Assembly (NCBI GenBank): GCA_951406725.2
Contig: OX597818.1
Coordinates: 73,346,001 to 73,410,000, forward strand
Length of the DNA: 64,000 bases
From: Octopus vulgaris
Lineage: Eukaryota
Reading direction: 5' to 3'
Shown: in pieces, positions 5,400-62,981 of the stretch
How the letters are laid out: each line of letters starts with the position of its first letter
Position numbering within the stretch: position 1 is the stretch's first letter
Notes under the pieces: generated by a model
Told to the model about the DNA's origin: nothing
Databases searched by the model: none
Seen by the model: only the letters and a program-made list of their open reading frames with translations
Made by a program: the position numbers and the translations under genes

Positions 5400-7676
5400 G
5401 TCCATTTAACTTATGTTCTTCCTATATATATATTGGATGAGTTGGTCAATAAACCCACTGACGTTGATCTCTGTTATTGATAATATACCTGAAATACCAA
5501 CAAAACATCTTTTAGTAGAGGTTTCAAACCTGGCTATAATAAAAGCGGCGATCGGGAAATTGAAAAATAGAAAGACTTCTGGTGTGGATGGATTATGTGC
5601 AAAGATATGCACATATGGTGGTGAACATCACTTCAATACTCTATAAATCGAAAGGTGAAAAGGATGTCTGTGATAACTTTCGCGTTATCTCTCTGTTAGC
5701 TGTCGCTGGAAGAGTTCATTGTAGGGTAATGGTGGATAGATTGCTCCTGCACATTGCCCATCAATTTCTACGTGAATCACAAATGGGTAGTAGGAGTTCT
5801 ATGGATTTTTTCAGCTGGACAGTTACAAGAGAACTATTTCGAACAGGATATGGACTTATATAAGATTTTTATTGATCTGACGAAAGCGTTTGGTTCTGGA
5901 AATAGTTACACTTTGGGAGATCCAGAAAAAAAGCCAGGATGTCCTTAAAATTTATGAGAATGCTTAGAAAATTTCATGACAAGATCCAAAGCTATCTTCC
6001 TGCTCCTACATTGTTTGCTCTGCATTTTACAATAGTCATCAAAAAAGCTTTCCAAAATTGCGCAGAAGGTGTCTATATAAAATATAGGACAGCGGGAAAA
6101 CTTTTGAACCTCCAAAGATTTAGTGTCAAAACAAAAGTTCTTCATTCTCACATCATTGAGTTTTTGTATGCATTTAATTGTGACCTGCGATTTCAGCATC
6201 GTGTAGAGCATTGGACCTTACTGTCAACTTGAAAAAAAAAAAAAACAGTTCTAATGTACGATCGTGCCTCCTCTAAACTTTATGTGGAACCTTCTATAAA
6301 TGTGAATGATCAAATGTTAGAAGTTGTTACCAAATTCATTTATTTTGGAAGTACTTTGAGCACTGCTGGTCTGGATGATGAAATTTCATATAGAATCAGC
6401 AAAGCTAGTAGTGCCTTTGATATGCTTAACAGGCGTCTCTAGCCATAGTATATCTTCCCAAATTAAAGTTAGGATTTATAACACACGTATCCTGCCATCT
6501 TTGCTAGGTTGTTTATCGTTGGCAGTTAAAGCATTTGAAACGATATCATAAATATTTTCTCATTCTTTTATTTGTTTCAGTCATTTGACACTAGGACTTA
6601 TTCTTTGTAAGATTAGTACTTATTCTATCTGTCTCTTTTGCCGAACCGCTTAGTTACGGGCACGTAAACACGCCAGCATCGGTTGTCAAGCGATGTTGGC
6701 GGGACACAGACACACAAACATATAGACACACATACATATATATATACATATATATGATGGGCTTCTTCCATTTTCCGTCAACCAGATCCACTCACAAGGC
6801 TTTGGTCGACCCGAGGAGATAGTAGAAGACACTTGCCCAAGGTGTCACACAGCAGGACTGAACCCGGAACAAGCTACTGACCACACAGCCACTCCGTAGG
6901 AAAATTCTTGGGATAAATTGGAAAATGGTCATCAGTGATTTGGAGGTACTTGAGAGAAGTGGTAGTAGAAAAGTAGAATCAATGATTCTGCAAAGTCGTT
7001 TGAGATGGGGTGGACATCTGATAAGAATGAATGATGAAAGTCTTCCCAAGCGACTTTTGTATGATGAGATAGAAGATGGTAGGTGGCAAGCACATAAACC
7101 CAAAATGAGTTATGAGAACTGACTCAGAATGGCTCTGACACAGACAGGAATTTTTGGAGAGGGGTACACAAGACCGCCGAAATGGCTGGAGGAGGAGAGT
7201 GCACAGTGAATGTTCGAGGTTTGAAAGAGAGATAATGAAGCACAAGAAGATTAGGAGAAGGCTTAGAAGGAATGAAACTGTGGAGTTTTGGCTTTTGGGT
7301 GCGTGGTTTGTGTGTGTTGGGGGGGGGGAGGTGCTTGAGTCGTGCGGGCCTGGGTAGCCATCAGACAACTCACAGGATTCGAACCATGGTAAATTGTGAT
7401 ATGGCTATTGTTCAGAACAGAACATGTGCAACATGTGGAAAGACGTGGCTCTCAGTTGGAAGACTGAAAAAGCATGTCAAAAGAGTTCATACAGTAGCGC
7501 CTGTTCTCTCTGCCAGCCAGAACATCATCACAGTTGTATATTATGTAATAGAATGTGCAACACTTACACCGAGCTCAAGAGTCATAGAGGGGGGGGTCAC
7601 ATTTCATCAACAATGATTCATTTCAGTGATTCTTTCTAGCAATGGCCTTGCTCGTATACGAGAAAGCAGCTAAAGA

Positions 7677-7680
<4 letters not shown>
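5400..7680 (+). mobile_element. 5'-truncated, decayed RTE-clade LINE (reverse transcriptase plus C-terminal C2H2-like fingers)
   Basis: LKNRKTSGVDG, LYKSKGEKDVCDNFRVISLL, FIDLTKAF, LYAFNCDL (dead YADD), LEVVTKFIYFGSTLS...EISYRISKASSAF, RKILGINWK, RLRWGGHLIRMNDESLPKRLLY; many stops and frameshifts. Confidence 0.9.
6560..6896 (-). mobile_element. SINE family A inserted into the RTE LINE
   Basis: Family A sequence interrupts the RTE frame between ...KHLKRYHKYFL and RKILGINWK. Confidence 0.85.
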
Positions 7681-7717
<37 letters not shown>

Positions 7718-7822
7718 CATATATCGGACAAACCATGCCAGACCACCAGTACCAGCGAATCCAAAAATACAAATGAGATCTAGTATTCTCCTAGTATTTT
7801 CAAATCCAAATCAGAATAAATC

Positions 7823-7886
7823 TCTGAGCTGATGAAGGAAATGTTGGCGTTTAGTCAACTAATCCAGAAACAGGCTTGTCCTCGGG
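7823..7886 (+). ncRNA. Type I hammerhead ribozyme, copy 1
   Basis: TCTGAG-CTGATGA-A-GGA.GTTGGC-gttta-GTCAAC.TCC-A-GAAAC-AGGCTT-GTC-CTCGGG. Helix I TCTGAG/CTCGGG; quasi-palindromic ACAGGCTTGT helix III; predicted cleavage after 7880. Confidence 0.75.
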
Positions 7887-8383
7887 TGATCTCAAATGGA
7901 TGTGATCTTTCGTTGATTTTTCCTTTATACCTATGTGAGTTATTTCTGAGTATGCATTGTCTGGGAGTCTTTTCTTGCAGTAGAAGAAATAGCCAAATTT
8001 TTGGCTGCTATTTCTAAAAGCTCGGTATGTGGTAAAGTAAATTATTTTACTTTACCCTATTTTTATAAAGTAATATTTCAAATATACCGTAAAAGGTCGT
8101 TTTACATACCGAACACTGCTCGGTCAAATTAATTAATAATTAAATAATTTTACCCTTTTTTATTGACAATTTAATAATTTCTCCCCAAAAATGTTAACTA
8201 CAGTTTTGCCTCGTAGGAATGCACTACTCTGTAACTCACGTGGGTGGACAGGGAGAATACTAGATCTCATTTGTATTTTTGGATTCGCTGGTACTGGTGG
8301 TCTGGCATGGTTTGTCCGGTGTTACTCATATCGGACGGGTATGTTTGATTTTTAGTACTTTCAAATCAAAATCAGAAGAAATC

Positions 8384-8447
8384 TCTGAGCTGATGAAGGA
8401 AATGTTGGCGTTTAGTCAACTAATCCAGAAACAGGCTTGTCCTCGGG
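8384..8447 (+). ncRNA. Type I hammerhead ribozyme, copy 2
   Basis: Identical to copy 1 and 561 nt downstream; predicted cleavage after 8441. Confidence 0.75.
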
Positions 8448-8631
8448 TGATCTCAAATGGATGTGATCTTTCGTTGATTTTTCCCTTATACCTATGTGAG
8501 TTATTTCTGAGTATGCATTGTCTGAGAGACTTTTCTTGCAGTAGAAGAAATAGCCAAATTTTTGGCTGCTATTTCTAAAAAGCTCGGTATCTGGTAAAGT
8601 AGATTATTTTACTTTACCCTATTTTTATAAA

Positions 8632-8677
<46 letters not shown>

Positions 8678-8680
<3 letters not shown>

Positions 8681-9272
8681 ATTAATCAATATAGGGTAGC
8701 AAAAAATTCAGCAGAAATTATTTTGCTACCAGCGGTCTAGTGAGAAAAAGGAAATAGTCAGGGACTATTTATAAATTCAACATCAAATTAAGGAACGGCC
8801 ATAATAGGCCGTTCAACCCACTAGAAATAACAGCCAAAGCTTCAACCGCAAAATAGTAGTAATTCCGTAAATCAGGAGAAAATTAAAAAACATTTAAACT
8901 TTCCACTTTATACAATGCATCGTTTCATCGTTTTTTAATGGTAAATCAGCCTGATTAAATTAAATCAAGCTAATCTTCCATACGCCAACAGATTCATCAG
9001 TAAAGTAAGCCAGGAGGGAGAGATATTTACACGAGGCAGCACCACTACCGCTTCGGCAATATCTAACCTAAAATTTTCAAAATCATCGTACTCGCGCCAA
9101 TTTATCGGCAGCAAATATAAGCTGACGATTCCAATTCGGAATTAAACAGATCTAGTATTCTCCCTGTCCACCCACGTGAGTTACAGAATAGTGCATTCCT
9201 ACAGAGGCAAAACTGTAGTTAACATTTTTGGGGAGAAATTATTAAATTGTCAATAAAAAAGGGTAAAATTAT
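8678..9272 (-). mobile_element. Second HHR-bearing non-coding element, tail-to-tail with the R-U-R unit
   Basis: 9148-9272 is the reverse complement of 8144-8267. It carries a different HHR (8905-9006) and is bounded by TA-rich tracts. Confidence 0.65.
8905..9006 (-). ncRNA. Type I hammerhead ribozyme with long helix II
   Basis: Minus strand: ACTTTA-CTGATGA-ATC...GATTAGCTTGATT-taattt-AATCAGGCTGATT...GAT-GAAAC-GATGCATT-GTA-TAAAGT. Helix I is 6 bp, helix III is the palindrome ACGATGCATTGT, GUA site. Confidence 0.75.
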
Positions 9273-9693
9273 ATATATGTAATAGACAATTTAACATAAT
9301 AGTCATTACATATAATTCCTTTATTATACAAAAATTGGCTTCCCACTTTTTTCCAGTTGTCATTAGTAATAGGTTTTCTCAATTCGTCTATTGAACTGAG
9401 GTGAACTGAAAGACCTAAGAAACAATAAACAGAGCACTTGAAGAATGGCTATTGTATGGGGAAACCGGGGGAAGTTTGAGATGTTTAAGTTGAAAAGGTA
9501 AAGGCAGGTACGATGGACTGGTAGCAATTGAAGGAGCGGTACTTAGTAGAAGTAGCAGTAGTAATATGAGTAGTAGAAATAGTAGTAGGTGTAATAGTAG
9601 GAGTATTAGGGACAGTAATGTACATAGGTCGGCAACATTACCATATTGGCATTAACCCATAATCTCTCACTGTTTGTTGTCTCTCTCTCACTC

Positions 9694-11164: not shown

Positions 11165-11193
11165 GCATGTGAGTGTGTATGTGTGTGTGTGTG

Positions 11194-11491
11194 TATAAAT
11201 TAGAGAAAAACCACCATGAAGCAATCCAACAACAATATACTAAAATCATACCATATAGAAAAGAATTAAAGCTACGATAAAACATTTACCTAAAACTAAA
11301 TAAAGTACGAAATAATAAATAAATAGTATATAATTACTAATTATATACTAATTACATACTATTTATTTAATATTTAGTACTTTATTTAGTTTTAGGTAAA
11401 TGTTTTATCGTATCTTTAATTTTGTTCTATATGGTATAATTTAAGTATATCTTTGTTTAAGTATATCATGGTGGCTCTTCTCCAATTTATA
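11194..11491. repeat. ~300 bp AT-rich palindrome (foldback)
   Basis: TATAAATTAGAGAAAAACCACCATG...CGATAAAACATTTACCTAAAACTAAATAAAGTAC is mirrored by GTACTTTATTTAGTTTTAGGTAAATGTTTTATCG...CATGGTGGCTCTTCTCCAATTTATA. Confidence 0.85.
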
Positions 11492-11559
11492 TACAAATAT
11501 TATATATTGTGAAATTTTATTCAGTATTACTCAATTGAATATTTTCCTGTATGTTTGGA

Positions 11560-47021: not shown

Positions 47022-48312
47022 CGAGGGACGTTCAATAAGTAATGTCCCTGACCCACGTGCAGTTGTTTGATCTAGCTCAAATTTTGCATGTGTAATTATC
47101 TATATCTCTATAGATTAAGTGGCAAATTACAGCTCTGAACTAATTGTGGTTTCTGATTTATAGGTGTTTGAACTGAGTCAAGTGTGAAATGGAGCCTGTT
47201 GAGTGTCGAGCAGTGATCCGGTTTTTGTATTTGAAAGGATGCACACCACGGGAGACTTTTGATGAAAAGAAAGTAACTTATGGTGATAATGCCCCATCAT
47301 ATGACCTTGTAAAACGCAGACATCGTGAATTCAAACATGGTCGGAACTCTGTGGAAACATCTCCCAGATCTGGTCGCCCCCCTTCTGCCATTGATGAGGC
47401 ATCTGTCCGTCAAGTTGAGGCTGCCATTTTGGAAGATCGACGCATAACTATTCGCCAAATAGCCCATGAGGTCAAGATTAGTACCGGGTCTGTGGAAACT
47501 ATCATTAATGACCATTTGCATATGCAAAAGGTGTCTGCCAGATGGATTCCCAGGTTGCTCACACCTTTCCAGAAGCAAGAACGCGTCGAGTGCTCGAGGA
47601 TGAATTTGGAGATGTGTCAAGAAGATGAGTCAAACTTTTTCAAAAGTCTGATTGCACAGGATGAAACCTGGGTCCATCACTATGATCCAGAGACCAAAGC
47701 CCAGTCAATGCAGTGGAAGCACTGTGACTCACCTCCTCCAAAGAAGGCAAGGGTGCAGCCCTCCGCTGGCAAGGTCATGCTCACAGTCTTCTGGGACCAG
47801 GACGGAGTAGTGATGACAGATTTCCTAGCAAAGGGTACCACAATTCCAGGAGCCTATTATGCTTCACTTTTGAGGAAATTCAGAGAAGCTATCAAAATCA
47901 AGAGGCGGGGCAAGATCAGCAAAGGCATCCTCCTCCTGCAGGACAACGCTCCGGTCCACAACTCGCGTGTCGCCAGATCAGAAGCACAGGCGTGCAGCTA
48001 TGATCTCCTCCCCCATGCCCCTACTCTCCTGACCTTGCACCCTCTGATTTTCACCTCTTCCAGCCATGAAGTTGTTTTTGAAAGGAAAGCGTTTCCCAGA
48101 TGATGCAACCTTGATTTCTGAAGTGACGTCGTGGTTGGAGGACCAAGCTGGGGTCTTCTACAAAAAGGGTCTCCATAGCTGCATCAAACGATGGGAGAAA
48201 TGCGTAACTCTGGGTAGTTCCTATGTAGAAAAAGACTAATAACTGTGCCAAGTTTCGTTGCTCTACTGCTATGGGAAGTGGGTCAAGGGCATTACTTATT
48301 GAACGCCCCTCG
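47022..48312 (+). mobile_element. Full-length mariner transposon, 1291 bp
   Basis: 35 bp TIRs CGAGGG(A/G)CGTTCAATAAGTAATG.CC.TGACCCAC with 3 mismatches; TA duplication at 47020-47021 and 48313-48314. Confidence 0.97.
47189..48239 (+). pseudogene. Mariner DD34D transposase, 350 aa after repairing two single-C deletions (~48020, ~48060)
   Basis: PRSGRP, WIPRLL, DETWVHHYDP, QDNAPVH-(34)-YSPDLAPSD; C-terminus RWEKCVTLGSSYVEKD*. Confidence 0.92.
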
Positions 48313-61057: not shown

Positions 61058-61442
61058 GTCTTACAGATAAATTTCCTTTATTTACGTAATATTGAGGTCT
61101 CTTTCTTTCTTTTGTTATCTTACTATTTTTACCAATATATATATATAATCAAAACAAGTATATGTGTATTTTTTTTAATATCTAGCAGAAATAACAAAGT
61201 GACTCGTGGTCCGAGATTTTCTTTTTGCATTTGCATATGTTAGCCGAATGTATCGACTCCAGTAATTATTTTTTTAAAGCTTGTTATTTGTATCCTCCTC
61301 GAATACTCAAGTGCTAGGTTACAGGAACGTAAACACACCAGATCCAGTTGTCAACCGATCGAGAGGGCGGTGTAAAAAAAGACACCCACAATGACACGCA
61401 CATCGATACATATATATGTGTGTTTATATATATACATGCATA

Positions 61443-61612
61443 CAGGGTTATTCAAAGAGAATGAAACGATTTCATGAGGCAATATCTTAATAAGGAAAAG
61501 CAAAAGACAACTCCAGTCAGTAAATAATTGTGACTTAGCTCGAGTTTTCTATAGCTTTTCCTTATTAAAATATTTCGCAATGAAATCGGTTCATTCGTTT
61601 TGAATAGCCCTG
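61443..61612. mobile_element. 170 bp Tc1/mariner-derived MITE
   Basis: TA-CAGGGTTATTCAAAGAGAATGAAACGATTTCAT ... ATGAAATCGGTTCATTCGTTTTGAATAGCCCTG-TA. Confidence 0.9.
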
Positions 61613-61618
61613 TACACA

Positions 61619-61649
<31 letters not shown>

Positions 61650-62815: not shown

Positions 62816-62864
<49 letters not shown>

Positions 62865-62981
62865 TTTATATAATTAGGGTTCAGCAAAAAATGTGCCTTG
62901 CCACATACCGAACTTTTGTGTGTATCTGCATGCATCTCTCTCTATCTTTCTCTTCTTGTGTGTGTGTGTGTGTGTGTGTGC

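Follow-up and report, generated by a model that had tools for sequence, protein, structure and literature searches.

Insertion ends like those of Penelope-like elements in a dispersed, hammerhead-bearing 561-nt tandem repeat of Octopus vulgaris

Published systems that resemble the locus described here fall into animal retrozymes, Penelope-like elements (PLEs) and plant LTR retrozymes, and what follows on them reflects the accessible portions of the cited sources. A link between animal retrozymes and PLEs has been proposed (PMC7229834) and is supported by a frog phylogeny in a 2026 preprint (10.64898/2026.07.22.740005), while the mechanism of mobilisation is left open in the available text of both. 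Animal retrozymes related to the present element accumulate as circles, and axolotl motifs with U·U at the 10.1-11.1 position cleave, better as dimers (PMC7229834); in the preprint, one of nine retrozyme dimers cleaved in vitro. PLE insertions are characterized by partial tandems, an inverted arm, a tail at one end and a bias toward microsatellites, according to the part of the description at hand (10.1101/2021.04.23.441226). The tail corresponds to the stretch between two internal start sites of reverse transcription, and the enzyme nicks AT-rich DNA on both strands (PMC11167929). In the sections available of the same study, the ribozyme of the Poseidon PLE is protein-assisted and dispensable for insertion in vitro, as hammerhead mutants inserted unaffected and no reads ended at the cut site. 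The cis-signals of the pLTR have been reported to suffice for integration in trans (PMC3846280, accessible text).

The window analyzed here is a stretch of 64,000 nucleotides of the O. vulgaris genome (contig OX597818.1, positions 73,346,001 to 73,410,000), and the element at 7725-8634 is a 5′-truncated, 5′-inverted copy, 1.5 turns long, of a dispersed non-coding 561-nt tandem repeat. We refer to the family with this 561-nt unit as family A, and to further families found in the genome as B, C and D. The first complete turn (unit positions 1-561) occupies 7792..8352 on the plus strand and is followed by a second, partial turn (unit 1-282, 8353..8634, plus strand) that stops at a fixed terminus, called terminus A below. 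Upstream, an inverted 5′ arm at 7725..7791 (minus strand, unit positions 527 to 461) is 100% complementary to 8252-8318 over its 67 nt. A (TA)n target tract abuts the element on the left (7680..7724), and another on the right (8634..8679) is common to the element and a neighbouring family D copy. The direct repeats, 7792-8072 and 8353-8634, are offset by 561 and measure 281 and 282 nt; they share 96.8% identity, with 9 of 282 alignment columns differing (8 substitutions and 1 indel), and are separated by a spacer of 280 nt (8073-8352). The longest ATG-initiated ORF in 7725-8633 encodes 61 aa on either strand, the GC content of the element is 35%, and two PLE proteins searched by tblastn had no match in the window, the element being without an ORF for reverse transcriptase (RT) and GIY-YIG nuclease.

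The anatomy given in an earlier note on this DNA was confirmed, namely the ~280 bp direct repeats 561 nt apart around a non-coding 280-nt spacer, the perfect 67 bp inversion, the (TA)n at both ends and two identical hammerheads with GUC sites at 7880 and 8441. Its reading of the unit as “R-U-R” was not, as the boundary between R and U is the 5′ truncation point of this particular copy, and other copies start anywhere and carry up to five hammerheads. Since the window copy comprises 1.5 turns, its R-U-R appearance is an accident of truncation. Two further observations concern the upstream flank. A short repeated sequence at 7594-7680 runs into the left TA tract and includes a CTCGTATACGAG hairpin resembling the tail of the 781-aa PLEs described below, and the left TA tract may mark the edge of an older PLE. 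At 7420-7495 (plus strand), just upstream of the element, a 125-aa stop-to-stop frame contains an isolated C2H2 zinc-finger-like peptide (CxxC...HxxxxH).

The two type I hammerhead motifs lie at 7824..7885 and 8385..8446 on the plus strand, with predicted cleavage after C7880 and C8441, which would release a monomer of 561 nt and 35% GC (7881..8441, plus strand). Stem I of motif 1 is formed by CUGAG (7824-7828) and CUCGG (7881-7885), and recurs at +561 in motif 2; the core of motif 1 consists of CUGAUGA (7829-7835), GAAA (7867-7870) and a GUC ending at 7880, and stem II is extended. Helix III (7870-7879) is a 10-nt palindrome, for which a dimer duplex of 10 bp and -12.3 kcal/mol is predicted. 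In the canonical type I consensus, positions 10.1 and 11.1 are paired and close stem II. The octopus motif has the core CUGANGA, GAAA and NUH and the paired stems I and III of that consensus, and 10.1-11.1 is unpaired, with one A on each side of the stem II base (A7836 facing A7866); this A·A is present in families A and B alike. Rfam searches returned no match at the gathering score over the whole window and, with E up to 10 in 7600-9400, 15 chance matches with the hammerhead among none of them, and folding the motif in isolation at minimum free energy (MFE) gives a structure other than the hammerhead (z -0.7 to -1.2). The hammerhead core is intact in 74 of 79 complete copies and stem I pairing is kept across families, suggesting that the ribozyme is under selection. 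The palindromic helix III fits dimeric cleavage, and the earlier proposal of a dimer formed through a quasi-palindromic helix III is compatible with this predicted self-complementarity.

The PLE hammerhead variants described in the accessible part of PMC4209133 share with these motifs a 5-bp helix I, a long helix II with an unpaired 5′ nucleotide, a small palindromic helix III and, in family B, the U3-A8 core variant, but in the octopus one more unpaired A, which families A and B both retain, lies on the 3′ side of stem II. We parsed 99, 26, 9 and 23 hammerhead motifs from 61, 29, 25 and 27 loci of families A, B, C and D, respectively. Between homologous families stem I changes and yet pairs (CUGAG/CUCGG, UUAUG/CAUAA and CCAUG/CAUGG), and the commonest helix III variants of the families are different palindromes; keeping both features fits dimeric cleavage of the kind reported in the sections available of PMC4209133. 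The core varies among C3-G8, U3-A8 and U3-G8, the second being found in the sister family B.

Family B has a unit of 554-556 nt that can be aligned along the unit of family A, family C has a unit of ~594 nt, and family D, with a unit of ~482 nt, is almost without similarity to family A; tandems and two termini are found in each of B, C and D. Families A, B and C are 70-75% identical in their best-conserved module, which in the window copy lies at 7979..8172 (plus strand) and has hairpins around terminus A, here at unit ~278-295, and terminus B, at unit ~366-384. We infer that this module is the region of RT recognition and initiation. The family D element next to the window copy spans about one turn (8680..9147, minus strand) and stands tail to tail with it; its hammerhead motif (~9005-8906) has a ~60-nt extension in stem II and a 12-nt palindromic helix III. 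Fused without TA to the 5′ end of this D copy is a 128-nt piece of the 561-nt unit (unit 350-476; 9148..9275, minus strand), with 3 differences from the window unit and at least 5 from other sampled copies. Elsewhere, the reverse strand of L085 (~5880-6780) holds, within a TA tract, a tandem that has a period of ~495 nt and a hammerhead motif of its own; it is probably a fifth retrozyme family. Degenerate fold-backs between microsatellites at 11190-11500 and 61417-61638 of the window have no similarity to families A-D, and a 308-aa mariner-type transposase frame (PF01359) lies at 47177-48103 (plus strand).

A similarity search with the unit gave 142 matches, mostly at 85-97% identity, with 40 scored of 1974 candidate places in the 2.8-Gb genome. 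The 43-nt hammerhead core occurs exactly 15 times at 14 loci and never when reversed, which excludes a one-off local duplication or chance; exact searches with an internal 36-mer of the main subfamily and with a motif common to the related families found 122 and 1616 matches, again with 0 in each reversed control. At least 61 distinct loci were mapped after removal of overlapping records for one place (similarity gave 33 of them, the exact hammerhead 10 and the internal 36-mer 18, the last picked irrespective of ends or ribozyme), and the count of genomic copies called for in the earlier note thus reveals a dispersed multi-copy family. Copies range from fragments to arrays with 5 hammerheads (L007), and the arrays are spread over nearly all large contigs and end at fixed termini in TA. 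Units within one array differ at 0-5 positions, an identity equally compatible with a circular template, local duplication or a homogeneous master. In L007, on contig C14, the units alternate between two variants with 0-3 differences, which may point to the duplication of a pair of units or to a dimer template.

The divergence between the window repeats is 2.9%, compared to a median of 0.8% in 31 multi-unit loci, and is the second highest, with one locus higher; at 7 of the 8 substituted sites, one allele is present in at most 4 of 83-96 other segments. The window copy is an ordinary member of the family and older than most of those sampled, and the suggestion of a recent insertion, previously drawn from the high repeat identity, does not agree with this divergence and these private or near-private alleles. 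The family as a whole is recently active, with near-identical copies at different loci.

The ends of the 61 loci were informative about insertion. The 3′ end falls at terminus A (unit 274-300) in 40, at terminus B (366-384) in 11 and elsewhere in 10, two of which are borderline (L002, assigned to B by another mapping, and L031, ending at 302), so the two fixed termini, ~100 nt apart, account for 51 of 61; in the 18 loci picked by the internal 36-mer the corresponding numbers are 13, 4 and 1. The 5′ ends are scattered over the unit and often inverted, and TA abuts the right end at 59 and the left end at 53 of the 61 loci. Target site duplications (TSDs) are unreadable inside a (TA)n target. An inverted 5′ arm was found in 30 of 61. 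Of these 30 insertions, 12 have a fixed terminus at each outer end (10 A+B, 2 AA and 0 BB), and in the remaining 18, including the window copy, at least one outer end lies elsewhere. The combination of inverted arms, fixed termini and flanking TA upholds the view that this is a retrozyme-type element with a Penelope-like insertion. Direct arms starting within 5 nt of the cleavage site were found at none of the 61 loci, and copies read through the site, indicating that cut linear monomers were not the templates. In L136-L165 there are many fold-back insertions of family C, ~270-300 nt long, which contain only the terminal module and run from terminus A to terminus B; as these are without a hammerhead, a hammerhead is not needed in the inserted copy. 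A 70-nt terminal fragment at 62848-62917 of the window (minus strand), 79-84% identical to families A and C, also ends in (TA)n.

The circular MFE of the window monomer (7881-8441) is -162 kcal/mol, with 69% of the nucleotides paired and a z-score of -7.1; none of 60 shuffled sequences folded as low, and the reverse strand reached -121 kcal/mol. Monomers of other family A copies and of families B, C and D gave z-scores of -4.4 to -10 (12 shuffles each), and in all four families the monomer folds better on the ribozyme strand. RNAalifold of 13 A and 2 B monomers indicated weak covariation (term -0.58), with two-sided changes in 17 of 143 pairs, mostly reflecting the split between A and B. Public contigs from four runs (two presumed to be RNA and two unspecified) contain the family sequence in pieces and span the locus in none, but assembled contigs are by nature blind to transcript ends, strand and circles, so these carry no weight either way. 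Reads joining 8441 to 7881, put forward before as a check, have the same sequence as read-through of a tandem and thus prove a circle only with copy-specific alleles. Of such alleles, the A at 8368 in the second repeat is present in 0 of 83 other segments, and the first repeat has T at 7924 and at 7968.

The octopus genome contains candidate partners. A scan for GIY-YIG domains gave 148 matches, with 150 scored of 6136 candidates, and intact PLE frames of 781 aa with RT and GIY-YIG are present. Inspected by eye, their linker has the form CX4CXXC, in keeping with the description of Neptune/Nematis in the part of 10.1101/2021.04.23.441226 available to us; these PLEs end in (TA)n, their two termini are separated by ~35 nt, and their hammerhead is of the U3-A8 type with a palindromic helix III. 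Many near-identical intact 781-aa frames occur at L072-L080, preceded by an ORF-like frame and followed by 3′ regions of ~1 kb that contain many CCAAT-type repeats; they likely represent a young active family. A blastn of the unit against 30 + 20 GIY-YIG locus records, 50 drawn from the 150 scored of 6136 candidates, found only separate TA-flanked insertions and no shared PLE sequence, and a tblastn of two PLE proteins against the family loci found a PLE ORF directly adjoining none of the copies read. Among the loci read in detail, which leave aside L118 and L258, the apparent PLE links at L048, L081, L040, L023, L226 and L257 proved to be independent insertions with (TA)n or other repeats between them. 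At L226 (~1478-2640, contig C11), however, no TA separates a D array from the inverted 3′ end, with tail, of a 781-aa-type PLE; an 18-nt filler connects the two, the single place of this kind among 29 D records. A single enzyme may have made it as a compound insertion, or a deletion could have brought two insertions together; along with the fusion of A and D at 9148, each a single case, it hints at a common machinery.

Judged by its sequence, the element belongs with the animal non-LTR retrozymes, as far as these are described in the accessible text of PMC7229834 and 10.64898/2026.07.22.740005: both consist of non-coding tandem units of low GC (<50%) with a type I hammerhead each, have a short palindromic helix III suited to dimers and a monomer predicted to be self-paired, and live in a PLE-rich host, and 561 nt lies inside the 51-972 bp range of the preprint. 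It differs in a unit longer than the 170-400 nt of the invertebrate examples, in the A·A at the stem II base where axolotl Amex2 has U·U (PMC7229834), and in that we found no pLTR parent among the 50 GIY-YIG locus records, whereas 21 PLE matches are given for Xenopus (10.64898/2026.07.22.740005). With EN+ PLEs (Neptune-like; Craig et al. 2021; Frangieh et al. 2024, PMC11167929, in the parts available) it shares partial tandems, 5′ truncation, the inverted 5′ arm, an optional tail at one end, (TA)n targeting and a hammerhead upstream of the 3′ termini. In contrast to them, it is a closed repeat unit of ~560 nt without an ORF and without sequence similarity to the PLE families sampled in this genome, and its tail is ~100 nt rather than 30-40 nt. 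The element works like a non-autonomous PLE; its type I ribozyme and unfixed 5′ ends set it apart from LTR retrozymes, and the missing RT and GIY-YIG ORF from autonomous PLEs. The class is known, and what is added here is the mapping of two termini, inverted arms and TA targets on it; a literature search over titles and abstract starts, with most subscription journals and Repbase outside its coverage, found no PLE-type termini mapped on retrozyme insertions and, with the same incomplete coverage, no study of cephalopod hammerheads. The supplements of 10.64898/2026.07.22.740005 were outside this scope and may hold similar families.

Taken together, we favour, with a probability of about 0.8, the reading that a PLE supplied the RT/GIY-YIG protein which inserted the 1.5-turn copy in trans, and that dimeric self-cleavage of the RNA of this copy is predicted to give a 561-nt monomer, possibly closed into a circle. 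A tandem copy, when transcribed, would yield a multimeric RNA, whose conserved hairpin module would likely be bound by the PLE protein before starting at terminus A or B. The protein would very probably nick (TA)n and begin reverse transcription inside the RNA at one of these two fixed sites, and the inverted arm, whose ends are observed although the enzyme is deduced, would probably come from a further start on the opposite strand, in most cases at the other of the two sites. Reverse transcription would continue past the ribozyme site, the number of turns varying from copy to copy, with an uncleaved multimer or a re-ligated circle, never the cut linear monomer, as template; a circle in this role is a tentative suggestion. 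Two hammerheads would pair through the palindromic helix III and cut, probably slowly, a step that we hold somewhat more likely than not, and a host ligase might close the 561-nt monomer, an analogy to the retrozymes of PMC7229834 (in its available sections) on which we place slightly less than even odds. The mobilisation by a PLE is proposed because the ends, inverted arms and TA bias match the insertion anatomy reported in the accessible parts of 10.1101/2021.04.23.441226 and PMC11167929. The lack of a sequence-sharing autonomous PLE among those searched and the tail of ~100 nt instead of 30-40 nt count against it, as do the A·A mismatch, the misfold at the MFE, the low yield of cleaving dimers in the preprint and the dispensability in Poseidon against ribozyme activity.

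The strongest alternative, which we hold to be a serious though less probable option, keeps the PLE-mobilised element and makes the hammerhead weak or irrelevant, so that a linear, uncleaved read-through RNA would be the template, template jumps of the RT would build the tandems and no circle would form. Insertions that read through the cleavage site are what uncleaved RNA would give, the A·A at the base of stem II and the Poseidon results (PMC11167929, accessible part) point the same way, and the fusion of A to D at 9148 indicates that template jumps do occur. This alternative does not, however, account for a core, stem I pairing and helix III symmetry kept across families that are ~70% alike at their best-conserved part, for a whole unit that folds as one self-paired, strand-specific structure, or for the circles of related animal retrozymes (PMC7229834, in the text at hand).

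Far less probable is local amplification of solo PLE pseudo-LTRs by unequal crossing-over, in the manner of a minisatellite, a model set out in the available part of 10.64898/2026.07.22.740005. Near identity of array units (0-5 differences) and the alternation in L007 would agree with it, but the arrays, which occur on nearly all large contigs, have random starts, many of them inverted, and stop at the fixed termini inside TA, and none of the copies read adjoins a PLE ORF; random starts combined with fixed, TA-flanked termini are the pattern of tandems made at insertion. A comparably improbable explanation is a SINE-like element mobilised by a LINE, or else a one-off duplication or mis-assembly. 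LINEs also produce 5′ inversions, and LINE remnants are present in the window and in the family loci, but the use of two fixed termini at the two ends of a single insertion, like tandems of several turns, is characteristic of PLEs, and the many dispersed copies exclude an artefact. The idea of a plant-like LTR-type (R-U-R) retrozyme mobilised by Gypsy machinery can practically be set aside, since, even though the window copy looks like two repeats around a spacer and plant LTR retrozymes also have a non-coding monomer of similar size between two hammerheads (PMC4918200, as described in PMC7229834 and 10.64898/2026.07.22.740005), these have type III ribozymes, true LTRs, PBS/PPT and a 4-bp TSD, while the octopus ribozyme is of type I, copies hold 1 to 5 hammerheads and the variable, unfixed 5′ ends of the family contradict it.

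The value of the preferred reading, PLE mobilisation of a predicted self-cleaving RNA, lies in the genomic evidence that it brings for such mobilisation, and rests on family-level insertion data rather than on the window copy. The family offers sharp predictions for the in vitro PLE assay that already exists (PMC11167929, in its accessible sections), with two initiation sites, a ~200-nt module, a TA target and 781-aa candidate proteins, and it could decide whether tandems originate by rolling-circle reverse transcription of a circular RNA, from linear read-through RNA or by later unequal crossing-over. A bolder possibility, which we regard as speculative and rather less likely than its negation, is that these families are circular-RNA parasites of Penelope enzymes, in which the palindromic helix III would stop the monomer circle from cutting itself and the PLE protein would roll round the re-ligated 561-nt circle, writing the tandem at insertion. 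If so, the same enzyme would join different retrozymes and PLE RNAs, and the mobilisation step proposed for the retrozyme cycle would have left its direct genomic trace in the junctions mapped here.
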